A stretch of 32,000 nucleotides of DNA, taken from NCBI GenBank assembly GCA_027925225.1, contig AP027131.1, positions 450,001 through 482,000 of the forward strand, read 5' to 3'. The DNA is from Candidatus Saccharimonadota bacterium (GTDB lineage: Bacteria; Bacillota_I; Bacilli_A; Mycoplasmatales; Hepatoplasmataceae). The position numbers and the translations under genes were made by a program. Position 1 is the first letter of the stretch; each line of letters begins with the position of its first letter. Below the pieces are notes generated by a model. It worked only from the letters and a program-made list of their open reading frames with translations, was not told where the DNA came from and searched no databases. Of the stretch, positions 433 to 28,881 are shown one piece after another.

Positions 433-1155
433 ATGATAATGAATTTTATTGATTGATTAAAAAAAATAGAAATAAAAGCAATTAATAAAAAATATAAAGA
501 AGGTTTAAAGAATTATGATTTTGATTCATTAATTAAAGATTATATTTCTAAAGATTTAGAAATAGAAAAAAATAAATTAGAAGAAACTATTAAAAAAATA
601 AATTTGAATAAAGAAATAGAAGATAAAAATATTTTAATTTTGAAAGACTGATTAATTGATTTATATGACATTTTATGTTTTTTTAGTGAAGAAAATATGA
701 AATTTAACAAAGTTTGAAAATATAAAATTCTTTATTTTATTTATGGAGGATTTATTTATTATCAAGAATATTTAAAAAAATATTTTGAAAAAAGGGGATT
801 TAAAAAAAGAAAAAATTTTAATTTTTTTATAAATGAAGAAAAAATAAAATGATTTGCTTTTGAAAAAGGCCCAATAACTAACCATTATAAATTTTTAGGA
901 AAGGATGAATCAATAAATATTAATATTGAAAAAAATGATATTGAAACAAAAGAAATTTTGGAAGATTTTTATTTAATTTTAAAAAAAAATTCTCTTGAAA
1001 CCCTTATAGAAGAAAGCCACAAAACAGATCCATGAGAAAAAGCTTTTAAAAAAAATGAAAAAGAAAGACCAAAATGGCAAGAAATTAAAGGAGAAGAAAT
1101 AATAAGTTATTTCAAAGAAAATATTCCTTTTTATTTAGAAAAACCAGATGAATAA
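433..1155 (+). CDS. Panacea (DUF4065, SocA/GepA-like) domain protein, putative PanA-type antitoxin, 240 aa
   Basis: The frame is continuous with 5 in-frame TGA codons read as Trp. Motifs KVWKYKILYFIYGGFIYYQ, KWFAFEKGPITNHYKFL and ESHKTDPWEKAF resemble the DUF4065 core (KLqKLLYf..g, W.yGPV...y, tHk..pW). The alternative start at ATG 439 has better spacing to GGGGA. A paralog lies at 25132-25788. Confidence 0.6.
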
Positions 1156-1570
1156 AATAAAAAAAATCAATCAAAAAAAAATAATTATTTGTTATATATT
1201 ATTTTTAGTATTATTTTTAGTATTTAGTTTTATAAATGGTAGTGAGTGGTTAGTATTTTGATGTTCGGGTGTTTTGCCAATTCCAATTTTTATTTATACC
1301 TATATAATTTCTAAAGAACAAAAACTTATACTAAAAAATATTCTTTTTAAAATTGATAAAGAATCAAAAAAAGATTTTAATGAAAAAATAAAACCAGCTA
1401 ATAAATTACCTAAAAAAAACACTAAAATTAATTTTATTAATAAAATTAAAATAAAAGAAAAGAAATCTGAAAAAATATATAAAATGAAATTGCAAAAACC
1501 TAAAGATAAAAATAATGTAAAAGAAATAATTAATTTAGAAAAAAATGAATTTAATCAAAAAAAAATATAA
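1148..1570 (+). CDS. Small two-TM membrane protein with a Lys-rich tail, 140 aa; candidate toxin partner of the Panacea gene
   Basis: Its ATG at 1148 overlaps the upstream stop (ATGAATAA). The N-terminus is basic, with two hydrophobic helices (IIICYILFLVLFLVFSF and VLPIPIFIYTYII), then ISKEQ and a Lys-rich tail. It is paralogous to 24762-25127, which shares FIYT...ISKEQ. Confidence 0.55.
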
Positions 1571-2682: not shown

Positions 2683-3603
2683 TTAACTTATCATTGGCGC
2701 TAATTTATTATTAACTATTTTCTTATTAATTTGTTTTCTTCCATAAAATGCAAAACTAAGTCCAGCAATAATTTGAGCTATTAAATAGAATGGAATTCAA
2801 ATTGTGTACATTACATCTCCGTTAACTCCAGTTACACTAGACATAACATCATGAGCAATAGCAGGTCCCATCATTCTTGCAGGGTTAATTGAAATGTTTG
2901 CACTTCTTATTCCTAAAGTAACTGCTAATCAAACTCCAACACCTACAACAATTGGTCTTCAAAAATGTGTAACATTTTTGAATAAAAATACTCCCCCTAT
3001 TAAAATACCAGTATATAAAATTTCTAGAAAAAATGAAACTGTTACAAATAGTCCGCCTAAATCCATTTCATCATAACTTTTTGTAGCATATAAAGCAGTA
3101 TTATAATCAATATCTCCTCAATTATAACTTGTTCAAACCGGATAAACTGCATCTAATGATGTCTGATAACTTGCTGCATTATCAGCTGAATTTCATAATC
3201 CCATTGAATCAGAAATTAGATAAGCAAAAAAACCAGCGGAAATTCCACCTAAAATTTGAGCCCCAATTTTAAGAGACCCAATTTTTAAAGTATCATTTCC
3301 ATAACCAATTTCAGCAATAGTAACAGCCGGATTTAAGTTAACAGAAATAAATCTTAAAAGATAAACTATAAAAACAACAAATAATGCTGCTCAAAGAGCT
3401 TTCATAAACATTAAGCTTCATATATTTGATCAAGCAATTCAAAAATCTTGATTATTTTGATGTGCGGCAGGCGTTGTAAAAGCCATTGTACTTGGAAGAA
3501 TAATTCAAAGAGTAAGAGCAATAGTACCTAAAAATTCTGAAACCAAAATGGCTGAAATACTTTTATTTCAACCTTTTTTTTCTACTTTTTTAATTTCTTT
3601 CAT
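2683..3603 (-). CDS. MIP-family channel (glycerol facilitator/aquaporin type) with canonical NPA boxes, 306 aa
   Basis: I checked the full frame under code 4. The motifs are SEFLGT near the N-terminus, NLNPAVTIA (NPA at 3325-3333) and SINPARMMGPA (NPAR at 2875-2886). Confidence 0.8.
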
Positions 3604-3656: not shown

Positions 3657-4670
3657 CTATTTAAATAAATTATTTACTAATTCTTTACCACTTAAAGCAT
3701 TATTTAAATTTTCAAATGAAACTTCTATTGTATTTTTTAATGCTTCAAATGTTACAGCACCAACATGTGGTGTTACTAAAAATCTAGGATAAAGATTACC
3801 AACTTCTTTTAAAATTGAAGGAATATTATTTTTATCATATTTTTTAAAAAATAATTCTTCCTCTCCTTCAATTACATCAGTACCATAAGTAGCTTTAGGA
3901 TTTGCTTTTAAAAATGTAATCATATCTTTTGTATCAGTTAATGCTCCACGCCCGGCGTTTATAATTACAACATCATCTTTTACTTTATCTAAATTTGCCT
4001 TACTGATAATATGTTTTGTTGAATCCATTAATGGACAGTGTACTGAAATAATGTCTGATTCTTTTAATAATTTATCTAATGAAACATATTCAATTAAATT
4101 TTTATAATTTTCATTTGGATAAGGATCATAACCAATTATTTTTGCACCAAGACCTTTATAAAGTTCAGCAGTAACATATCCTATTTTTCCTGTACCTAAA
4201 ATTCCAACAACACTTTTTCTAACTTCTTTTGAAAGCATTATATCTGTAATAGTATAATCTCCATCTTTTGCTCTATCTGCAGTATATTGAACTTTTCTTA
4301 ATAATGTCATTCCTAACGCAACTGATAACTCAGCAATAGCATTTGGTGAATAAACAGGAACTCTTTGTAAAGAATAAAAACCTAATTCTTGCGCTGCTTT
4401 AATGTTAATATGATCAAAACCAGCTGTTCTTGTTAATAAATATTTAACACCCATTTCTTTTAAAACTTTAAGATGTTCTTCTTTTAGAAAAACATTTTCT
4501 CTAACCATGATAGCATCACAGCCTTTTGCTAATTTTAAATTATTTTCATCTATTTTAAAACTATCTACAAAAACAAGTTCATAACCATAAGGTTTATTTA
4601 ATTTATTAAAATATTCTCTTTCATTTTCTCTAACACCATAACAGATGATTTTAGCTTTTTTTATATTCAT
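3657..4670 (-). CDS. ldhA: D-lactate dehydrogenase / D-isomer-specific 2-hydroxyacid dehydrogenase, 337 aa
   Basis: The ORF is intact in the track. The motifs are RVPVYSPNAIAE, GILGTGKIGY (NAD-binding fold), IINAGRG and TPHVGAVT. An AAGAGG Shine-Dalgarno sequence lies upstream of the ATG. Confidence 0.8.
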   Translation of the reverse strand: MNIKKAKIICYGVRENEREYFNKLNKPYGYELVFVDSFKIDENNLKLAKGCDAIMVRENVFLKEEHLKVLKEMGVKYLLTRTAGFDHINIKAAQELGFYSLQRVPVYSPNAIAELSVALGMTLLRKVQYTADRAKDGDYTITDIMLSKEVRKSVVGILGTGKIGYVTAELYKGLGAKIIGYDPYPNENYKNLIEYVSLDKLLKESDIISVHCPLMDSTKHIISKANLDKVKDDVVIINAGRGALTDTKDMITFLKANPKATYGTDVIEGEEELFFKKYDKNNIPSILKEVGNLYPRFLVTPHVGAVTFEALKNTIEVSFENLNNALSGKELVNNLFK

Positions 4671-4689
4671 TTTATATACCTCTTTCTAT

Positions 4690-6222
4690 TTATTTTTTAA
4701 CAACAACTGAATCTTCAGTCATTTCACTTGGTTTTTTTATCTCTAAAATATCTAACATAGTTGGAGCTAAATTACTTAATTTAGCTATTACTTCTTTTTT
4801 ATATTCTTTTTTAAAATCAAAATCTTTTGAAACAAGATAAAATCTAACTTTATTTGTGGTATGAGCAGTATTTGGACTACCATCATAATTTAACATCTTT
4901 TCACAATTACCATGATCAGCAATTACAATCATAATTCCATCTAATTCTTTAACAATTAAATCATATAATCTTTCAAGCATTTGATCAACTGTTTCTACTG
5001 CTCTTATACCAGCTGATAAAACTCCAGTATGGCCCACCATATCAGGATTTGCATAATTAATAATTGAAACCTTGTTTTTTGGGATTTCATTTAATAATTT
5101 ATCAGTAAGTTCAATTGCTGACATTTCTGGTTTTAGATCATAAGTCGCTACTTTTGGAGAAGGAACAAGAATTTTTATTTCATTTTTTCTATCAAGTAAT
5201 TTTCCACCATCCATAAAAAATGTAACATGAGGATATTTTTCTGTTTCTGCTGCTCTAATTTGACTTATATTATTTTTTTCTAAAACATCACCTAAAGTAT
5301 TTTTTATTTCTTTTGTTTCAAATAGAACATTCGAATTTATGTTTACCATTTCTTTTAGAGAAACTAAAAAAATATTTTTTAGTTTATTTTTATTTTCATA
5401 ATCATATCCTGAAGATTTATCGTTTAAGAACATATATGAAATTTCACGTATTCTATCAGACCTAAAATTAAAAATTAAAATTACATCTCCATCTTTAATT
5501 TGTCCTTTAATTTCCTCATTAAATCCAGGAACAATAAATTCATCAGTTACATTATTTTGATAACTTTCTTCAATAAATTTTACCGGATCAGAAAAGCTTT
5601 TTCCTTTTCTATTAACAATTACATCATAAGCTAACTGAATTCTTTCTCATCTTCTATCTCTATCCATTGCATAATATCTACCAGAAATAGAAGCAACATT
5701 AATTTTTTCAACATTTATTGCTTTTTTAATAAGATCTAATGCAGATTTTGGATCTGTATCTCTCCCATCAGTAAAAGCATGTAAAAAGAAATTAATATTT
5801 TCTTCATCAAGTTTATTCTTTAAATCATAAAAATGATCTAAACTTGAATGAACTCCACCCTCAGAAAAAAGTCCTAATAAATGTAAATTAGAATTATTTT
5901 TTCTTAAATGCTTAATTGCATTTTTAAAAACTTCATTTTTAAAGAATTTTTTATCATTTAGTTTTTCTTTAATTTCTAAAATTGATTGTTTAACAATTCT
6001 TCCTGAACCAATATTTAAATGACCAACTTCAGAATTACCCATTTGCCCTTTTGGTAATCCAACTCATTCTTCACTAGCATTCATTAATATTGAAGGATAA
6101 TTTTTTTTAAGAAAATTTAAGAATGGGGTGTTTGCTAATTTTAATGCATTACCATAAATTTCTTTTCTTTCACCAGCACCATCCATTATTATTAAGGATA
6201 AATGTTTTAAATCTTTATTCAT
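4690..6222 (-). CDS. gpmI: 2,3-bisphosphoglycerate-independent phosphoglycerate mutase, 510 aa
   Basis: Track fragments 4690-5433 and 5647-6042 join in one frame through TGA codons. The N-terminus reads LIIMDGAGER...LPKGQMGNSEVGHLNIGSGRIV, and ADHGN lies in the C-terminal half. Confidence 0.9.
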
Positions 6223-6979
6223 TTTTTAAAATCGAAATAAATTTATGAGATTCTAATGCTACTCCACCTATTAATAATCCATCTATTAAATTACTATTTA
6301 AGAAAAGCTTGTAATTTACTTCATTTACTGAACCACCATAAATTAATTTTGAAATATTCACATCCTTTCCTTTAAATTTTGATTTTAATATTTCTTTTAT
6401 TATTAAAAAAATCTCTTCTATTTCTTTAATAGTTGGTATTTTCCCTGTACCGATTGATCAAATTGGTTCATAAGCAAAGATAAATCTTTCTAAATCTTCA
6501 AAAGTAATTTCGCTTATTAATTTTTCTAAAAATTCTTTTATGATATTTTCTAAATTACCTTTTTTTCTTTGTTCTAATGTTTCGCCGAAAATAAATACTA
6601 TTTTTGCATTAGAATTTTTAAGTGCATAAAGTGCTTTTTCTATAGCGAATTGATTATTTTCATTAAAGAAAAGGCGTCTTTCTGAATGACCAACAAGTAA
6701 ATAATCTAATGTATTATCTTCAAACATTTTAATGCTTATTTCACCAGTAAAAGCACCTTTATCTTTTGGATAAAAATTTTGAATACCAATTTTTACTCAA
6801 TTATTAATGTTATTTTTTTTAAGATATTTTTTTATAGAAATTATTAAAGGAGCAGGGGGAATTATTGCAAATTCATGAACAAAGTGATTGTTATTTTTTT
6901 TAATTTCATCAAAAAATGTATATGAATCACTTTCGTTCATATTCATTTTTCAGTTTCCTATTATTAATTTTTTATTCAT
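6215..6979 (-). CDS. tpiA: Triosephosphate isomerase, 254 aa
   Basis: The sequence runs MNKKLIIGNWKMN...VGHSERR...YEPIWSIGTG...LIGGVALE. I checked the frame under code 4. Its stop overlaps the gpmI start by 8 nt. Confidence 0.9.
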
Positions 6980-6980
6980 A

Positions 6981-8186
6981 TTAGATATCCTCAATGAGTT
7001 CTAATGAAGGCATTTCTTTATTTTCTAAAAATTTTAAAGAAGCTCCTCCACCTGTTGAAATGTAGCTTACTCTTTTTTCAAGTCCTAATTTTTTAGTCAT
7101 TAAACCCGAATCTCCACCACCAATTACTGTAAAAACATTTTTTAAATTTACAATACTATTTAAAATTTCCTTTGAACCATTTGAATATTTATCATTTTCG
7201 ATAATTCCTAAAGGTCCATTTCAAAAAATTGTTCGAGCATTTTTTAGAGAATCTTGAATTAACTTAATTGATTTTTCACCAAGATCAACACCCATATAAT
7301 CATCTGGTATTTCTTCGTATGATTTCAATTCTTGATTTTTATCATCATTTATTTCTTTTACTGCAATAGAATCAAAAGCAACTATTATTTTTTCACTGTT
7401 ATTTTTTAAAATATTTTTTGCATATTCTATTTTTGATTCATCAATTAAAGATTTTCCAACTAAATGATTAGTTGCAAGTCTAAATGTATAAGACATCGCA
7501 GGTCCAATAATAACTTTATCAGCTATTTTTAACATTGAATCAATAACACCAACTTTATCTGATATTTTTGCTCCGCCCAAAATTACAACAAAAGGTCTTT
7601 CTGGGTTCATTTTAATTTTTTCAAGTACTTCTAATTCTTTTTTAACTAAGAAACCTATTACTTTTTCTTTTATGTTTATTGAAATTCCATAATTTGAAGC
7701 ATGTTTTCTATGTAAAGTTCCAAATGCATCATTAACAAATACATCTCCTAATGAAGCTCAATATTTGCTTAATTCTCCATCACAACTTGATTCATATTTT
7801 GTTACTTTTTCATTTATAAAATCTTCAAATCTTGTATTTTCAACTAAAAGAACATCACCTTTTTTTAAAGAATTTATTTTATTTTCTAATTCTTTACCTC
7901 TGGTTTTTTTTACAAAAATAACATTTTTATTTAAAAGTTTACTTAATTCTTCACCAACAATTTTTAGTGATTTTTTTTCTTTATCACTTTCACTCTTTAT
8001 TCTTCCAAGATGTGAAAAAATAATAATTTTTCCACCTTTTTCAATAAGATAGTTTAATGTTGGTAGTGATTGAATAATACGATTATTATCAACAATCTTT
8101 TTATTATCTATAGGAACATTTAAATCTAATCTAACTAAAATTTTTTTATTTTCTATATCTTTTAGATTTGTAATTGTTTTTTTCAT
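6981..8186 (-). CDS. pgk: Phosphoglycerate kinase, 401 aa
   Basis: The track fragments join through TGA. The motifs are VRLDLNVP, NDAFGTLHR, VILGGAKISDK, FWNGPLG and STGGGASL. Confidence 0.9.
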
Positions 8187-8196
8187 TTTTTAATTT

Positions 8197-9186
<990 letters not shown>

Positions 9187-9230
9187 TTTTCTAAAATTAC
9201 CATACCTTTTCTTTTTTTAAAAATCAACTA

Positions 9231-9264
9231 ATATGAATGTTTGAATTTAAAAAAACACTCATAT
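9231..9264. promoter_or_regulatory. Inverted repeat upstream of the gap operon, candidate operator
   Basis: ATATGAATGTTT (9231-9242) and AAACACTCATAT (9253-9264) are reverse complements at 11 of 12 positions, separated by 10 bp. The repeat lies 45-78 nt upstream of the gap ATG. Confidence 0.25.
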
Positions 9265-9306
9265 TAATAATATAATATTTAAAGGCTTAAATTTTAAAAA
9301 ATTGAT

Positions 9307-9339
9307 AAAAAATGAGACATAATTTGTCTCATTTTTTTT
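9307..9339 (-). terminator. Rho-independent terminator after the PTS EIICB gene (bidirectional geometry)
   Basis: AATGAGACA (9311-9319) pairs perfectly with TGTCTCATT (9325-9333) around a 5-nt loop, flanked by A and T runs. Confidence 0.75.
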
Positions 9340-9357
9340 AATCATTAAAATGTGATT

Positions 9358-11577
9358 TTATTTATAAAGTTCTTTTTTTATATCATTAAGTTCTGATCTA
9401 TAAATATCTGCTTCTCCACCAAAAACAATATGAACATTAAAACCTCTTTTAATTATTCCTGAAGGTTTTAATTCATTTTTTATTTTTTCTTCATCAATTA
9501 TATCTAAATCTACGACAACAAGTCTAAGTTTTGTAATACAAGATGTAATACTTTTTAAATTTTCAAATCCTCCAAGATAAATTATAATTTTACGAACCTT
9601 TTCTCTTCTGCCCTCTGGTAAAGCATTAAATTTAATACTTAAATCTAATTGGGCATTTATCTCTTCTGGTGTTTTGAATCCCTCTTTAGTATTTAAAGCA
9701 AATTCAGTTGCTACAGCTCCACCATCAGAGGAACCAACTCCTGATTTAGCGGCTTTATATTCGGCTTTACTTACTAAATGAATATCTTCTCCCTCAGATG
9801 TTCTACCTGGTGTTTTAACATCAAATCTTTTTATATATCAATAGAATAAGAAGTAATAAATTGGCATTAAAACTACTCCAAATGCTACAAGTCATCATCA
9901 TCCTACACCTGATATACCTGTTGCTCATGGTAATATTCCATATAAAGAAAGATCTATAATTCCCCCTGAGAATGTCATTCCAACAGATGCTTGCATCGCA
10001 TCAGCAAATCAGAATGAGAATCCACATAAGAAAACATGGAAAACATAAAGCATTGGAGCAATAAATAAGAATGTAAATTCTAGAGGTTCAGTAACTCCTG
10101 TTAAGAAAGTTGTAAGCATTGCTGCTCCTATTATTGAAAATGCTACTTCTCTATTTTCTTTTTTTGCAGCCATAATCATTGCAAAACCAGCAGCAGGAAG
10201 ACCAAAAATCATAAATGAATATTTTCCTTGCATATATTCACCAGGATTTGTACCTGATGTCATTACAAAGTAATAACCTTGATCCGAAGGACCAAAACCA
10301 CTATCCATTGACCCAGTACCTAAAGCTGAAGGGTCATAAATTACTCAACCTTGATCATATCAATTACTTCAACTACCCTGTGTTAAACCAGAATTGGCAG
10401 CAAATTGACTTGAAAAGTCATATCAATAATTATCAGAAAGAAGAGAATTAAAATCCAATGTATAATTATTAATTGCAAATCAAATACTTTCTGAACCAAA
10501 TGCACTAGTAACAACATTTCCTTGTTGATCTAATACAAAAAATGAACCACCTGCTGATGTAAATCATAATGGTGTATAAAAAGCATGATGAAGACCAAAT
10601 GGAACTAATGCTCTTTCGACAACACCAAAAACAAAAGCATCTGTACCATAAGGCATATCTCCAAGAGCTTTACCAAGACTTTCTAAACCTTTTCCAAGTG
10701 GAGGTCAAGTGAAAAGAAAGAAAAATGAAATTATTGGTATAAATAAAAATGTAATTATAGGAACTGATTTTGTTCCACTAAAAAAACCAATTGATTTTGG
10801 TAATTGTAATTTATAAAATTTATTATAAATTCATGCAACAAAAAGTCCAACAACAATACCACCAAAAACTGATGTTTGCATTGATTGAATACCACAACTA
10901 GTTGTAACAACTGAAGTAGGAACAGTATCATAAAATAAAATATTATAATAATTACCATATGATATTGTATTACCTGTTAAATCACCTACAAATTGAAAAA
11001 AACTATCTAAATCAGTTTGAGTAAGTGAAATTGTTTCCCCAGTTGTTGTATTTGTTACAACAACTCAAGAATTTACTTCATTAATATCAATATATCCATT
11101 ACCATCTAAATCAAGAAGTTTTAAATCATCAATACTATTTATATCTGTAACAGTACTAAAATTTAAACCTTGTGCAGGCATATACTCTGATATATATTGA
11201 CTTCAATCTGTTTGATTTATAACATCAAAATTTGAAGAACTAATTAACATCCCGCTTTGATCTCAAATAAATACATCTTGAACAACACAAAAAACTATCC
11301 AACCTATAAAAGCAGAAAATGCCGCCACCCCAGCATCCTCAGTGAATGCAATTGCCAATGCAATTGCAAATAAAACTGCAAGATTTGAAAATACAATATT
11401 TCCAATCTCTGTCATTAAATCAGGGATTATATATCATGGACTTGATGCATCAACACCAACAGTATTCATTATATTAGAAATCCCTGAACCAACTCCTAAA
11501 AATAACCCAGCAATTGGAAGAAGAGCTATGGGTAGCATTAAACCTTTTGAAAGTTTAGATATCGCTCCCCCCCCCAC
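9358..11577 (-). CDS. ptsG: PTS glucose/N-acetylglucosamine-family EIICB permease with large loop insertions and no EIIA domain, about 739 aa
   Basis: I verified the frame as open from 9361 to 11589 under code 4. The motifs are LSKGLMLPIALLPIAG, GVTEPLEFTFLFIAPMLY and a C-terminal EIIB with SCITKLRLVVVD. The called start is GTG 11577, 8 nt after AGGAAA. Alternatives are ATG 11538, or ATG 11608 if the poly-G tract changes length. Confidence 0.8.
11567..11575. repeat. Homopolymeric C9 (G9 on the coding strand) tract at the 5' end of ptsG
   Basis: The run was counted directly: atcgct ccccccccc actac. It stands out as a long G/C run in this very AT-rich window. Confidence 0.95.
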
Positions 11578-16019: not shown

Positions 16020-16451
16020 ATGAGAATTAAATTTATTTTTAAAAAAGAACAGAATTATATAAAAGAAAGAGTTTTTAAATTAGAACAAAAAAATGAAACA
16101 CTTAAAAATATTGTCATAAATGATGTTAAAAAGGATGTTTCGGATCTAAAAACGGATGTGTCGGTTTTAAAAAAAGATGTTTCAGAACTAAAAACAGATG
16201 TGTCAGTCTTAAAAAAAGATGTTTCAGAACTAAAAACAGATGTATCGGTCTTAAAGAAAGATGTTTCAGAACTAAAAACAGATGTATCGGTCTTAAAGAA
16301 AGATGTTTCAGAACTAAAAACAGATGTATCGGTCTTAAAAAAAGATGTTTCAATTTTAAAGAATGATATGTCAGAATTAAAAAATGATTTTAAAATTTTA
16401 ATTTCAAGATTTGATAATTTTGAAAAAAATTTCTATAATAAAGAAATATAG
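16020..16451 (+). CDS. Heptad-repeat coiled-coil protein, 143 aa; longest member of a four-copy family in this window
   Basis: The ORF is intact, with an AAGGG Shine-Dalgarno sequence upstream. Twelve consecutive heptads of the DVSxLKx type sit between a conserved head (IKFIFKKEQN...NIVINDVKK) and tail (DFKILISRFDNFEKNFY). Confidence 0.75.
   Translation: MRIKFIFKKEQNYIKERVFKLEQKNETLKNIVINDVKKDVSDLKTDVSVLKKDVSELKTDVSVLKKDVSELKTDVSVLKKDVSELKTDVSVLKKDVSELKTDVSVLKKDVSILKNDMSELKNDFKILISRFDNFEKNFYNKEI
16131..16384 (+). repeat. In-frame 42-bp tandem repeat (two 21-bp heptad subunits), about 6 units
   Basis: Units start at 16131, 16173, 16215, 16257, 16299 and 16341 (the last is degenerate). The central units are near-identical (aaagatgtttcagaactaaaaacagatgtatcggtcttaaag). 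Confidence 0.9.
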
Positions 16452-16496
16452 AAGAATAAATATATTTAATTTTAAATATATACAAATAATTAGGCA

Positions 16497-20244
<3,748 letters not shown>

Positions 20245-20423
20245 CAGATTTATTTATTTTTTGTTTATTACATCTCACAAAGTCATTATATTAGTATCTT
20301 TTTTTGAAGAAAAAAATATTTAAAAAGAATTTTAAATATTTAATTTTAATAAAATAAATATAATAAATAATCAATGTTTATGATATTAATTTAATAATAA
20401 TATATTAGAAATGTGTGGTAAAT

Positions 20424-21344
20424 ATGAAATTAAATGTTACTGAAAATTTAAATACAAACAAAATTAAAGAATCAAAAAAGTGATCTAATTTTTTTAAAAA
20501 AAAATATCTTGGATTAATATTTATATTTGTATTAATATTAACGTTAATTTTATCTCTTTCTTTAACACTCACAAAAAGAAAAGATGAAGCAAATAATTTT
20601 TATACATATGGTGAAAATTGTCCATATGTAATAGATATAGAATCAGAGCAATATGTTGGATATGGAAGAATTGGAATGGATGTAGCTTTTCAACTTGAAC
20701 CAGGTTATGTGCCATCTGATTATGTATATGTTTTTGAAACTTCAGAAAATTTAGAAGAAGAAACTTTAGTAGCTGAAGTGCCAATAAAATATGATTATGA
20801 TGAAGATGTAAATTCTCCTTATCATCAAAAATATCCTTATGGTGTTTATAGTGCTTACCAATATATTCCTTATAACTTTAGCAATCATATAAAAACATAT
20901 TCTATTCAAGTACAGTTAAAAGATAAAAATGAAAATAATGTTGGAATTGTAGAACTCGATACTTTTTCACTTTATGATAATCGAAAACCTAATGGTTTTA
21001 CAATAAGTCCATTTGTTAATATTCTTAATTATCAAAATATAAATTGAATGTATGGAAATTGCTATTTACATTATGAATTATTTTATCCTGAAGGAAGTGG
21101 AAAAATTAAAAATGTTTTACTTGTAGATGAATATGGAAACATTGTAAGCAGCAGCAAAGCAATAACTGGTAAAAATTTTGAATATGATTATAGAGGTATT
21201 TTATATCTTCCTGCAAATTACACATCCAAACCAATTACATATCATATAGATGTAGTTTATTCGCATAATGTTCTTCCATATGGAGATTTTACAAAAACTT
21301 TTAGAACAGAAATTTATGACAACATTACAGTTTATCCTTCTTAA
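20424..21344 (+). CDS. Hypothetical N-terminally anchored surface protein, Tyr/Asn/Asp-rich, 306 aa
   Basis: ATG 20424 joins track ORFs 20676-21047 and 21048-21344 through TGA codons. The TM segment is YLGLIFIFVLILTLILSLSL. I checked the frame and recognised no family. Confidence 0.65.
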
Positions 21345-21448
21345 AAAGAAATTTGATTTAACTAATTATTTTAAATTTAATTAATAATATAAAAATGAGA
21401 AAATTTAAGCTTTGTTAAACATACTTATAATTAATAAAGGATATTAGT

Positions 21449-21583
21449 ATGTGAATTAAATTAGTATTTAAAAAAGAACAAAATCAAGTAAATGAAAAAA
21501 ATTTAGAATTAAATCAAAAATATGAAATATTTGAAAACATTGTTAAAAAATATATAAAAGAATTAAAAATAATTTTAAATTAA
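21449..21583 (+). CDS. Truncated or degenerate member of the coiled-coil family, 44 aa
   Basis: The sequence is MWIKLVFKKEQNQVNEKNLELNQKYEIFENIVKKYIKELKIILN. The head is identical to 24210-24425, but it has a 12-nt deletion and an early stop where the Abi-like gene abuts. Confidence 0.4.
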
Positions 21584-22981: not shown

Positions 22982-23004
22982 GTTTTTATCTTTTGAGAGT
23001 TCAT
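22982..23004 (-). pseudogene. Orphan copy of the treB start codon plus about 7 codons, fused to the 23S fragment
   Basis: atgaactctcaaaagataaaaaca matches the first codons of treB at 20244 downwards. Homology ends near 22982. Confidence 0.7.
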
Positions 23005-23183
23005 CAGATTTATTTATTTTTTGTTTATTACATCTCACAAAGTTATTATATTAGTATCTTTTTTTGAAGAAAAAAAATATTTAAAAAGAATTTTAAATAT
23101 TTAATTTTAATAAAATAAATATAATAAATAATTAATGTTTGTGATATTAATTTAATAATAATATATTAGAAATGTGTGGTAAA

Positions 23184-24105
23184 TATAAAATTAAATGTTA
23201 CTGAAAATTTAAATACAAACAAAATTAAAGAATCAAAAAAATGATCTAATTTTTTTAAAAAAAATATCTTGGGTTAATATTTATATTTGTATTAATATTA
23301 ATGTTAATTTTATCTCTTTCTTTAACACTCACAAAAAGAAATGATGAAACAAATGATTTTTATGCATATGGTGAAAATTGTCCATATGTAATAGATGTAG
23401 AATCAGATCAATATGTTGGATATGGAAGAATTGGAATGGCTGTAGCTTTTCAACTTGAGCCTGGTTATGTTCCATCTGATTATGTGTATGTTTTTGAAAC
23501 TTCAGAAAATTTATAAGAAGAAACTTTAGTAGCTGAAATTCCAATAAAATATGATTATGATGATGACGTAAATTCTCCTTATCATCAAAAATACCCTTAT
23601 GGTGTTTATCGGAGCTTATCAATATATTCCTTATAACTTTAGCAATCATATAAAAACATATTCTTTTTAAGCGCAGCTAAAAGATAAAAATGAAAATAAT
23701 GTTGGGATTGTCGAACTTGATAATTTTTCACTTTATGATAATCGTAAGCCTAATGATTTTACAATAAATTCATTTACTAAAATTCTTAATTATCAAAATA
23801 TAAATTAAATGTATGGAAATTGCTATTTACATTATGAATTATTTTATCCTGAAGGAAATGGAAAAATTAAAAATGTTTTACTTGTAGATGAATATGGAAA
23901 CATTATAAGTAGCAGCAAGGCAATAACTGGTAAAAATTTTGAATATGATTATAGAGGTATTTTATATCTTCCTGCAAATTACACATCCAAACCAATTACA
24001 TATCATATAGATGTAGTTTATTCGCATAATGTTCTTCCATATGGAGATTTTACAAAAACTTTTAGAACAGAAATTTATGACAACATTACAGTTTATCCTT
24101 CTTAA
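23184..24105 (+). pseudogene. Inactivated duplicate of 20424-21344; the last 98 codons (23809-24105) remain an intact ATG-initiated ORF
   Basis: Relative to copy 1, the start ATG has become ATA (23184). The A9 run is A8, giving a frameshift. GAA has become TAA at 23514-23516, and there is a further frameshift near 23610. A TAA lies at 23668-23670, and the TGA (Trp) has become TAA at 23806-23808. Confidence 0.8.
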
Positions 24106-24209
24106 AAAGAAATTTGATTTAACTAATTATTTTAAATTTAATTAATAATATAAAAATGAGAAAATTTAAGCTTTGTTAAACATACTTATAATTAATAAAG
24201 GATATTAGT

Positions 24210-24425
24210 ATGTGAATTAAATTAGTATTTAAAAAAGAACAAAATCAAGTAAATGAAAAAATCTTAAAATTAGAACAAAAATATGAAATATTTGAAAATG
24301 TAATTATAAATGATATTAAAAAAGATATATCAGAATTAAAAATAGATTTTAAAATCTTAATTTCTAGATTTGATAATTTTGAAAAAAATTTTTATAATAA
24401 TCAAATTAGAAAAATGTTTAATTAG
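24210..24425 (+). CDS. Coiled-coil family protein, short form (1 heptad), 71 aa
   Basis: The sequence is MWIKLVFKKEQNQVNEKILKLEQKYEIFENVIINDIKKDISELKIDFKILISRFDNFEKNFYNNQIRKMFN. AAAGGA lies 8 nt upstream of the ATG. Confidence 0.65.
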
Positions 24426-24481
24426 ATTTTTAAAAAAATATAAAATTAAATCCTTTTATTCTTAATAAAATGAGGGATAAC

Positions 24482-24730
24482 ATGTGAATTAAATTGATTT
24501 TTAAGAAAAAAGAAAATCAAATAAAGAAAGAAATTTTAGAATTAAAGCAAAAATATGAAAGAATTGAAAATATTGTTATAAATGATGTTAAAAAAGATAT
24601 ATCAGAATTAAAAATAGATGTAAAAATTCTAAAAACAGACATAACAGAATTAAAAACTGATTTTAAAATTTTAATTTCTAGATTTGATAATTTTGAAAAA
24701 AATTTTTATAAAAATAAGACCTTAAATTAA
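24482..24730 (+). CDS. Coiled-coil family protein, intermediate form (3 heptads), 82 aa
   Basis: ATG TGA at 24482 gives MWIKLIFKKKENQ...INDVKKDISELKIDVKILKTDITELKTDFKILISRFDNFEKNFY. A GAGGGA Shine-Dalgarno sequence lies upstream. The track ORF at 24494 is the same frame. Confidence 0.7.
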
Positions 24731-24761: not shown

Positions 24762-25127
24762 TTATAAATCATTTTTATAAAGGTTTTTATTTAATCTTTC
24801 TTCAAGTTTATCCTGAGATTCTTTTAAAATATTTGCTTCGTTTTCTTTGGAAGAAAAAAATTTTGTTAAATTTATTATTTCTTTTTTATATTCTTCAATT
24901 TTATTTTCTAATTTATTATTTTGCTCTTTACTAATAATTTTTTGTTTTGTGTATATAAAAATAGCAATTAAAAAAATTAATAAACTTAAAATCCCTGAAA
25001 TAAACATTAATCTATCATCTTTTAAATCAGAAGCAACAATAAGTCAAACATCCACAATAAAAAAAGAAATAATTAAGAAAATATAGAAATAATTAAAAAG
25101 ACATTCCTTAAATTTCTTCTTTTTCAT
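24762..25127 (-). CDS. Small two-TM membrane protein with a charged coiled-coil tail, 121 aa; paralog of 1148-1570
   Basis: Track ORF 24762-25007 extends through one TGA to ATG 25127. The sequence runs MKKKKFKECLFNYFYIFLIISFFIV...ISGILSLLIFLIAIFIYTKQKIISKEQ. It starts 4 nt after the upstream Panacea-like stop. Confidence 0.55.
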
Positions 25128-25131
25128 AAAA

Positions 25132-25788
25132 TTAATCAATCTTTCTCATATAAAAAGGTGGATTATTTTTAAAATAATTAATTATTTCTTCTTTTTTTAT
25201 TTCATTTCATTTTATATTTGAATTATAAACACCTTTTCAAGGCTCCGTTTCATGACTTTTATTAATAAGAAATTCTACACTAAAAAATTCCTTAATTGTT
25301 AAATAAAAATCTTCTAAACTTTCCTTTATTTTATTATTCATTTTTTCAAAATCAATTTCTATTAATTTGTCTTCTTCTAAAAATTTATAATGATTAGTTA
25401 CAGGCCCGTTTTTAAAAGCAAATCATTTAACTTCTTTTTCATTAATGAAAAAAGTAAAATCGTCTTTTTCTAAACCTTTTTTTATAAAATATTCTTTCAT
25501 ATAAATAAAACCAGCATAAAGGAAATAAAGTATTTTATATTTTCAAATTTTATTGTATTTAATATTATTTTCACTAAAAAAATTTTCAATTTCAATCAAA
25601 TTTTCTAATCAATCATTTTCCAAAGAATTAAGATCTAAATTTTTAGAGGCAAAATCTTTTAATTCCTTAAAAGTTAAAAACAAACATTTTTCTTTAAGAG
25701 ATTTAGAAATATTATTATCATTATTTAATTTATTTATTTCAATTTCTTTAAGTCAAAAAGTAAATTCATTGTTTTCCATTCTTTTCAT
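25132..25788 (-). CDS. Panacea (DUF4065)-like protein, paralog of 433-1155, 218 aa
   Basis: I verified the frame as open under code 4, with an AGGAAAG Shine-Dalgarno sequence upstream. NKIWKYKILYFLYAGFIYMKEY, KWFAFKNGPVTNHYKFL and KSHETEPWKG parallel the motifs of the first copy. Confidence 0.6.
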
Positions 25789-25847: not shown

Positions 25848-25880
25848 AAAAAAAGACATTATATTGATGTCTTTTTTTTA
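25848..25880 (-). terminator. Rho-independent terminator downstream of 23S rRNA
   Basis: AAAAGACAT (25851-25859) pairs with ATGTCTTTT (25867-25875), flanked by A and T runs. Confidence 0.65.

Positions 25881-25937: not shown

Positions 25938-28881
<2,944 letters not shown>

Follow-up and report, generated by a model that had tools for sequence, protein, structure and literature searches.

PanA antitoxins, which carry the Panacea (SocA/DUF4065) domain, neutralise dozens of unrelated toxins (PanT) via direct complexes, and three validated PanTs are small transmembrane (TM) proteins that depolarise or permeabilise the membrane (PMC8832971). The locus considered here, positions 433–1570 of a 32,000-nt stretch of contig AP027131.1 (the whole stretch analysed, hereafter the window), comprises A1, a gene whose 240-aa product was related to the Panacea proteins by profile comparison, and the adjoining T1, which encodes a 140-aa small membrane protein, a candidate toxin; a second pair, A2/T2, is located in the same window. 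The initial annotation had proposed a PanA/PanT-type toxin–antitoxin (TA) module for this locus and had noted that PanA antitoxins pair with diverse toxins, membrane-depolarising ones included, which is indeed a published observation (PMC8832971).

Published PanA/PanT pairs (PanATs) with membrane toxins are those of E. coli STEC O31 (toxin cluster T3), Bartonella apis (toxin cluster T12), Helicobacter sp. 13S00482-2 and B. choladocola (PanT-D11) (PMC8832971, PMC10440598). A standalone Panacea protein contacts the cytoplasmic segment of its toxin beside the TM region, and conserved core residues, including the motif His, are required; in multidomain PanAs, neutralisation relies on elements added at the N- or C-terminus and is termed linear neutralisation (PMC10440598). 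The pairs described here resemble the membrane PanATs in the Panacea motif series, in the tight antitoxin-first bicistron and in a small partner with predicted TM helices. They differ from them in that A lies below the Pfam and NCBIfam thresholds and carries ~85 family-specific N-terminal residues, and in that the host is a wall-less Mollicute with TGA read as Trp. The build of T is, moreover, reversed relative to the published membrane PanTs, as far as these are described: the toxins of clusters T3 and T12 are charged at the N-terminus and carry their TMs at the C-terminal end, and in the Helicobacter toxin C-terminal TMs follow an N-terminal coiled coil, whereas T has its hydrophobic helices towards the N-terminus and its charged tail at the C-terminal end.

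Dataset S1 of Kurata et al. contains Mollicutes, namely, Spiroplasma citri and the Mycoplasma mycoides/feriruminatoris/yeatsii group (toxin cluster T1 of that study, order A/T), as well as a phytoplasma with 25 Panacea genes (PMC8832971). The name "Hepatoplasma" is absent from the supplementary files of that study, and the A family is undetectable with the Pfam hidden Markov model (HMM) used in it. The nearest annotated Mollicutes relative of the A family was found on S. citri plasmid pScpLB319-2 (positions 16057–16732), where a 163-aa Panacea gene and an overlapping 67-aa open reading frame (ORF) stand between phage portal and terminase genes in a plasmid-borne prophage-like region. The S. 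citri pair and the A family share the organism class, the A-then-T order and the C-terminal motif (..SHKTEPW....I.NKEIKKWFEKDVP in S. citri and SHKTDPW....I.GEEIISYFKENIPF in A). However, the S. citri PanA is a plain Panacea protein ("noNTD") that passes the curated models, unlike A, and its partner has no clear TM helices, unlike T.

In the type VI system of Caulobacter, SocB is a soluble protein that blocks replication via the DnaN sliding clamp, and SocA promotes the degradation of SocB by ClpXP. The Panacea domain is shared by SocA and A, but T is a membrane protein, whereas SocB is soluble; the score of A1 with the NCBIfam SocA_antitoxin model (NF047745; 15.4 bits against a cut-off of 190) and the lack of a match of T to soluble toxin families speak against membership in SocAB. 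The PAD1-Panacea PanA is described as having an N-terminal PAD1 domain with conserved histidines, a toxSAS partner and the toxin encoded first (PMC8832971), and the A/T pair does not fit this description, as the N-terminal region of the A family has no conserved His in the alignment, the membrane partner is not a toxSAS and the order is A then T. Peptides of the HokB/TisB type and S21-type class II holins are like T in being small and in having a hairpin of hydrophobic helices and a charged cytoplasmic C-terminal tail, and by this analogy membrane depolarisation would also be the expected action of T; they share no sequence relationship with T, whose putative antidote is a protein and not an antisense RNA, and T stands in no lysis-cassette context.

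HPAVJP_3790, encoded on a contig of 662,108 bp from the isopod-gut mycoplasma Candidatus Hepatoplasma vulgare, matches the A1 product at 100% identity. The G+C content of the window is 15–30% outside rRNA, and long ORFs appear only when TGA is read as Trp, table 11 fragmenting both A1 and T1; all translations were therefore those of table 4. At a stop probability of 0.0685 per codon, 140 and 240 codons would remain open with probabilities of ~5e-5 and ~4e-8, respectively, and thus the A and T ORFs are not due to chance. The features of the first pair are as follows:

433–1155, + strand: A1, divergent PanA-like (Panacea-domain) protein of 240 aa, with 5 in-frame TGA (Trp) codons
433–693, + strand: family-specific N-terminal helical region of A1, ~85 aa, a conserved first helix followed by a variable stretch
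694–1143, + strand: Panacea (SocA/DUF4065-type) domain of A1, from hhalign and HMM comparison
1148–1570, + strand: T1 (HPAVJP_3800), small membrane protein of 140 aa, candidate toxin, table-4 ORF
1181–1309, + strand: two predicted hydrophobic helices of T1 (aa 12–29 and 34–54), from hydropathy
1310–1567, + strand: Lys-rich tail of T1, from composition

Two in-frame ATGs, reading ATGATAATG, open A1 at 433 (240 aa) and 439 (238 aa), and the GenBank entry HPAVJP_3790 begins at the second of them. The start at 439 is more likely, since the GGGG at 427–430 lies 8 nt before the second ATG and 2 nt before the first, a spacing that suits 439 better. The 3′ end of A1 is GAT GAA TAA, with the stop at 1153–1155, and the ATG of T1 (1148) sits inside GATGAATAA, so that the two genes overlap, as had been read initially, the overlap measuring 8 nt. 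Because there is no room for a promoter or a terminator between A and T, co-transcription and translational coupling of the two genes were inferred.

Panacea Domain and Structure of the A Proteins

A word-indexed search of 5.8 billion proteins returned six relatives of A, none of them with a Pfam domain. When the profile of these six sequences was compared exhaustively with 1.84 billion cluster representatives, 52 matches were obtained at E ≤ 1e-3. The top 29 of these (E < 1e-10) were mostly proteins of 190–260 aa, along with some fragments, with an A1-like architecture, and the tail of the matches (P0032–P0054; E from 1e-8 to 5e-4) consisted mostly of proteins of ~145–190 aa and fragments aligned to profile positions ~67–215. 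PF13274 was found by a Pfam scan in 25 of the 52 matches (best E = 4.5e-22), and 16 of the 17 tail proteins aligned in alignment A4 passed PF13274 at E < 0.001. Comparison of the 25-sequence family with these 17 Panacea proteins in hhalign gave 99.6% (E = 2.4e-24) over 127 aligned columns corresponding to A1 residues 86–235. An HMM built from alignment A4 recognised A1 with 57.9 bits and A2 with 58.8 bits, the scores of all 11 family members ranging from 47 to 79 bits. A Spiroplasma citri plasmid protein, named "SocA domain-containing antitoxin" by the Prokaryotic Genome Annotation Pipeline, matched the A-family HMM at E = 1.8e-14.

The three motifs quoted in the initial annotation of A1 were located at aa 95–107 (WKYKILYFIYGGF, the KYKILYF helix; nt 715–753), aa 140–152 (WFAFEKGPITNHY, the W.AF..GP hairpin; nt 850–888) and aa 195–204 (SHKTDPWEKA, SH.T.PW; nt 1015–1044), and all three were aligned with their Panacea counterparts in hhalign. 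The K(L/I)LYF helix, the aromatic-x-x-GP(V/I) hairpin and the S-H-x-T/E-x-P-W motif are invariant or nearly so in the A family, and the His of the SH..PW motif, which a standalone Panacea protein requires to neutralise its TM toxin (PMC10440598), is retained. On this sequence evidence, the assignment of the A family to a diverged Panacea (SocA/DUF4065) subfamily beyond the reach of curated models may be regarded as settled. The Panacea (DUF4065) identity first proposed for the 240-aa protein is borne out by the profile search, hhalign and the Panacea-only HMM.

Direct searches with curated models did not return this assignment. The Pfam search for PF13274 that had been proposed for the 240-aa protein, with the lack of a significant match named as refuting, gave no match, which speaks against the identity if taken to the letter: hmmscan found no PF13274 in full-length A1 or A2 at E ≤ 1, and in the isolated C-terminal 150 residues of either protein there was none even at E ≤ 10. 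In NCBIfam, the SocA_antitoxin match of A1 covered residues 166–229 at E = 0.011. With no Panacea structure available as a reference, a Foldseek search of the A1 model found nothing in the PDB, and the best matches in BFVD were three unnamed phage proteins of ~147 aa (probability 0.66–0.94, E = 0.15–0.54). The gathering threshold of PF13274 (SocA_Panacea) is 25.7 bits; four relatives (P0010, P0013, P0014 and P0016) had sub-threshold PF13274 matches of 16.5–18.7 bits (E = 0.004–0.017), and the other close members mostly had none. Neither A1 nor A2 matched the PADLOC models, and in PHROGs there was a match of A1 only, to phrog_1281 (E = 0.0011). All family members are at present annotated as "hypothetical protein".

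Searches of other collections were also made. The A-family profile gave only chance matches among PDB sequences (E ≥ 0.16), and tblastn of A1 against 50,697 phage records gave no match. In GTDB genomes, the alignment of the first six A proteins produced 313 pattern matches, none of which was confirmed, the Hepatoplasma genome itself being evidently absent from the collection; a degenerate DNA pattern for KYKILYFxY produced 71 loci in these genomes, none with a Panacea-like ORF in either code, and the controls worked.

The AlphaFold2 (AF2) model of A1 is confident, with a predicted local distance difference test (pLDDT) score of 80 and a predicted template modelling (pTM) score of 0.82. Its N-terminal helix (residues 3–20, pLDDT ~90) holds the conserved family motif F..W[LI]K.IE...L, residues ~21–60 are helical, variable and of low confidence, and the rest of the model corresponds to the Panacea core, in which KYKILYF forms a long helix, W.AF/GP lies at a beta-hairpin and the C-terminal half is helical. 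The N-terminal ~85 residues of A1 matched no Pfam family. A is shown to be a cytoplasmic protein in which ~85 family-specific helical residues precede a Panacea domain of ~150 C-terminal residues.

Membrane Partners, Conservation and Surroundings of the Pair

The distribution of the A/T family is known only from metagenome and Sequence Read Archive assemblies and from two metagenome-assembled genomes. The analysis included 11 loci, namely, the two window pairs and L001, L002, L003 (=L004), L005, L006, L007, L008 (=L009), L010 and L011, drawn from at least six samples or assemblies. All contigs in which the A/T subfamily has so far been found are of the Hepatoplasma/Mycoplasmataceae type, very AT-rich and with TGA read as Trp; the A genes of the other loci have 3–7 in-frame TGA codons and ~20–27% G+C. 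The conservation of the pair as neighbours, which the initial annotation had suggested checking, was confirmed: in 11 of 11 loci, A is directly followed by a same-strand ORF of 110–172 aa, which often overlaps it (−38 to +9 nt in 9 loci; adjacent in 2 more). No third conserved gene was found beside the pair in the 11 loci. With the in silico definition of PanATs given by Kurata et al. (genes ≤ 100 nt apart, at least two species and no conserved operon of more than three genes; PMC8832971), the A/T loci agree.

Pairwise identity was 31–64% for A and 13–50% for T; A2 and the L011 protein are the closest pair of A sequences (64%), and their partners are the closest pair of T sequences (50%). The matrices of A and T correlated weakly (Mantel rho = 0.28, p = 0.04). 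The 662-kb genome contains at least three A paralogues (HPAVJP_3790, 4040 and 4410). The flanks differed in every locus examined:

Window copies: pyk and a MIP-family (GlpF-like) channel gene; 23S rRNA and coiled-coil genes
L001: gmk and PP2C
L002: GmrSD/Fic
L003: MatE and ABC transporter
L005: phage integrase
L006: infA and rpmJ-rpsM
L007: Ser/Thr kinase and rpmF, the DNA being otherwise syntenic
L010: type I restriction-modification genes on both sides

The cassette thus behaves as a mobile accessory unit. The related genomes of L001 and L007 both hold coaD-gmk-PP2C-kinase, with the cassette between gmk and PP2C in the former and after the kinase in the latter; in L001, the start of A overlaps the stop of gmk. 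In L006, the cassette is inside the infA-rpmJ-rpsM ribosomal protein cluster. For a candidate toxin module, such positions in conserved operons are noteworthy.

In L006 (3738–3760) and L011 (~2911–2930), there is a 1-nt frameshift in a poly-A run straight after the ATG of T, and in both loci the T ORF was missed or shortened by the gene caller; in L006, the ATG of T overlaps the stop of A as TAATG. The frameshift could be a homopolymer assembly error, a pseudogenisation of the toxin or a phase-variable tract, assembly error being the simplest explanation because both loci originate from sample ERR14127475.

The T proteins open with a short N-terminus, in most cases basic, which leads into two hydrophobic segments and then a long charged tail. 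Hydrophobic segments were called by Kyte–Doolittle hydropathy; two N-terminal segments were present in 9 of the 11 proteins, and one in those of L003 and L010. Both termini are predicted to be cytoplasmic by the positive-inside rule. The composition of T1 given initially was reproduced by hydropathy and by tail composition, and the AF2 hairpin agrees with it: the N-terminus is basic (MNKIKKINQKK), two predicted TM helices follow, and the 87-aa tail is Lys-rich, with 28 Lys to 11 Asp+Glu. In the AF2 model, T1 is helical throughout, with a pLDDT of 77–87 in the TM hairpin and low values in the tail (overall pLDDT 64, pTM 0.28). Homology among the T proteins was assessed with leave-one-out HMMs against 300 shuffles that kept the N-terminal, TM and tail composition, and 7 of the 11 proteins were supported as homologues, their scores being reached by 0–1 of the 300 shuffles.

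Comparison of the T partners with Pfam, NCBIfam, PADLOC and PHROGs gave only scattered sub-threshold matches to TM and coiled-coil models, and the T-family profile returned only the input proteins from a large protein database. In PADLOC, T1 had no match, and T2 matched TM/coiled-coil models only at E ≥ 0.01. A SLATT identity was rejected: T2 alone matched such models, and below threshold (SLATT_4, E = 0.006, 16.7 bits with a cut-off of 27; SLATT_5, E = 0.41), whereas the 9 other partners scanned, namely, T1 and 8 from other loci, gave no match. A holin or spanin identity was likewise rejected, as the PHROG matches were weak and confined to T2, and holins were kept as a functional analogy. The sequence comparisons therefore point to T as an undescribed family of small membrane proteins that matches no described family and is a candidate toxin, in agreement with the initial statement that the partner was not recognisable as a described toxin family.

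The second pair is on the minus strand:

25132–25788, − strand: A2 (HPAVJP_4040), PanA-like paralogue of 218 aa, 48% identical to A1
~25566–25140, − strand: Panacea domain of A2, from the HMM of Panacea proteins
24762–25127, − strand: T2, membrane partner of 121 aa, with its ATG 4 nt past the A2 stop
25100–24951, − strand: two predicted hydrophobic helices of T2 (aa 10–32 and 40–59), from hydropathy
25848–25878, strand not assigned: hairpin with 12-nt arms (100% complementary) and T-run flanks, a likely terminator upstream of A2, between the 23S 3′ end and A2

The recurrence of the two-gene architecture at 24762–25788, reported initially, was confirmed. The paralogy of A1 and A2 is solid on sequence comparison (48% identity, E = 2e-57), and that of T1 and T2 is probable, weaker than had been claimed (36% over 61 aa, pairwise E = 1e-5, with T1 reached by 6 of 300 shuffles). 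A complete 23S rRNA gene stands alone at 25939–28881 (−), ~150 nt from the start of A2/T2 at its 3′ side; 5S and 16S rRNA were not found in the 32-kb window with Rfam, and the rRNA genes thus appear to be unlinked. A segment of ~1.3 kb (20222–21562) is duplicated at 22982–24323, 2,760 nt downstream, with 86–96% identity, the second copy lying beside T2. The first copy contains an intact gene for a 306-aa membrane-anchored protein (20424–21344), and the second has decayed to fragments (23301–23516 and 23809–24105). Members of a small coiled-coil protein family are encoded at 16020–16451, 24210–24425 and 24470–24730 (+), with a fragment at 21449–21562; they share the N-terminus M.IK..FKKEQN and the C-terminus FKILISRFDNFEKNFY, the interior being formed by a variable number of 21/42-nt repeats (DVSVLKKDVSELKT). 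In Pfam, this family matched only generic coiled-coil models and no specific family.

Upstream of the first pair, the following features were identified:

2–271, + strand: 3′ end of the pyruvate kinase gene (pyk), C-terminal domain (PF02887 PK_C, E = 5.1e-8), outside the module
285–347, strand not assigned: long AT-rich hairpin whose 28-nt arms are 96% complementary, with T-runs, a likely pyk terminator insulating the module
364–369, + strand: TATAAT read from the sequence, a candidate −10 box for the A1–T1 transcript

The PF02887 match agrees with the initial naming of pyk as the neighbour. A consensus terminator scan, which demands G+C-rich stems, gave no site before A1, and the TATAAT at 364–369 is absent from the promoter-scan list, consensus scans being uninformative at this composition. 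Two tandem MIP-family paralogues (PF00230; glycerol-facilitator/aquaporin-like) at 1582–2472 and 2683–3603 (−) converge on T1, the nearer lying 11 nt from the T1 stop, and beyond them, at 3657–11538, there is a glycolysis cluster (2-hydroxyacid dehydrogenase-like, gpmI, tpiA, pgk and gap) followed by a phosphotransferase system permease.

Weighing of the Proposed Function

On the profile evidence, the build of the partner and the adjacency in 11 of 11 loci, each pair is probably a bicistronic, translationally coupled PanA/PanT-type (type II-like) TA cassette with a candidate membrane toxin, and the module proposed initially is supported as a candidate. In such a cassette, A would be made first from the shared mRNA, bind the cytoplasmic parts of T and keep T inactive. 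A may grip T directly via the Panacea core, in the manner shown for the standalone PanA and its TM toxin, or else via its N-terminal helical region, that is, by linear neutralisation. If A were lost or inactivated, for instance when the cassette is lost or on a cue from phage or stress, T would be freed and would oligomerise in the single membrane of the wall-less cell and depolarise or permeabilise it, as validated membrane PanTs and holin-like toxins do.

The probability of this reading was not set higher because 9 of 25 predicted PanATs were validated in E. coli by Kurata et al. (PMC8832971), and several results obtained here also count against it. In the shuffle test, the homology of T1 was marginal, and that of the L001, L003 and L007 partners to other T proteins was unsupported. 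A is better conserved than T, unlike the usual type II pairs. The charges of the T tail and of the N-terminal region of A did not complement each other (rho = −0.22, p = 0.5) in a way that would favour neutralisation through that region.

It is possible, although doubtful, that the genes form a conserved two-gene operon that is not a TA system, T being a harmless anchor or signalling partner and A a membrane-recruited sensor or regulator, for example, a phage-defence or stress sensor with its effector elsewhere or a protein with a lineage-specific housekeeping function. The better conservation of A than of T, with a nearly invariant N-terminal helix, is consistent with such an operon, as are the proposal of Ernits et al. 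that Panacea is primarily a sensor (PMC10440598), the lack of toxicity of many predicted PanATs on testing and the existence of ~1,000 Panacea proteins without a TA-like partner (PMC8832971). However, the adjacency is strict and often overlapping in all 11 loci, with no third conserved gene; several copies, each at a new site, typify selfish or defence modules rather than housekeeping genes; and T, a small, fast-evolving protein that combines two hydrophobic helices with a charged tail, is built like a holin-like protein or a membrane toxin. Unlikely, too, is an abortive-infection or addiction module that is specific to the lineage and suited to cells without a wall, with a holin-like toxin gripped by the N-terminal region of A. 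The enlarged N-terminal helical region of A would then be a new neutralising or sensing element acting on the cytoplasmic tail of T, and freed T would kill the single-membrane cell directly without a lysin; the poly-A tracts after the T start, frameshifted in 2 of the 11 loci, could serve as phase-variable switches of toxin expression.

We consider it very unlikely that the pair is a type VI system like SocA/SocB, in which A would be an adaptor handing T to a protease, FtsH or Lon in Mollicutes, where ClpXP is, to our knowledge, generally absent. The faint match to the SocA_antitoxin model is the sole curated-model signal of A1, SocA is the founding Panacea protein (PMC8832971), and a membrane substrate would suit FtsH; however, the 190-bit threshold is an equivalog cut-off and the 15-bit score reflects the shared domain only, T resembles neither SocB nor any soluble toxin, and direct complexes were formed by each of the nine pairs that Kurata et al. 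validated (PMC8832971). Least probable of all is a remnant of phage lysis or superinfection exclusion, with T as a class II-like holin and A as its inhibitor or an unrelated phage "GepA-like" gene. Weak PHROG matches of T2 (holin, spanin-like and one unknown phage family, E from 4e-5 to 0.04), the phage integrase adjoining L005 and the position of the S. citri Panacea gene between phage portal and terminase genes point in this direction, whereas A1 was unmatched in the phage records, phage structural or lysis genes were not found around either window copy or most other loci, and the PHROG matches are sub-significant, restricted to T2 and placed on TM/coiled-coil low-complexity sequence.

The hyperpromiscuous Panacea domain reaches a Mollicutes subfamily undetected by the Pfam, NCBIfam and PADLOC models, and since curated models overlook this subfamily, surveys using curated HMMs undercount PanATs in AT-rich TGA=Trp organisms. 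An undescribed family of small membrane proteins and candidate toxins, built in the opposite order to the validated membrane PanTs, is added to the known partners. Should T prove toxic, the pair would be an incremental extension of a known system and would introduce no new principle. The presence of at least three copies in a 662-kb obligate isopod-gut symbiont bears on the question of why reduced genomes keep conflict or addiction modules. If the pair were an abortive-infection or addiction module of this lineage, it would provide a minimal, tractable model of Panacea control over membrane toxins, and it would mean that a 0.66-Mb obligate symbiont retains several active conflict modules.

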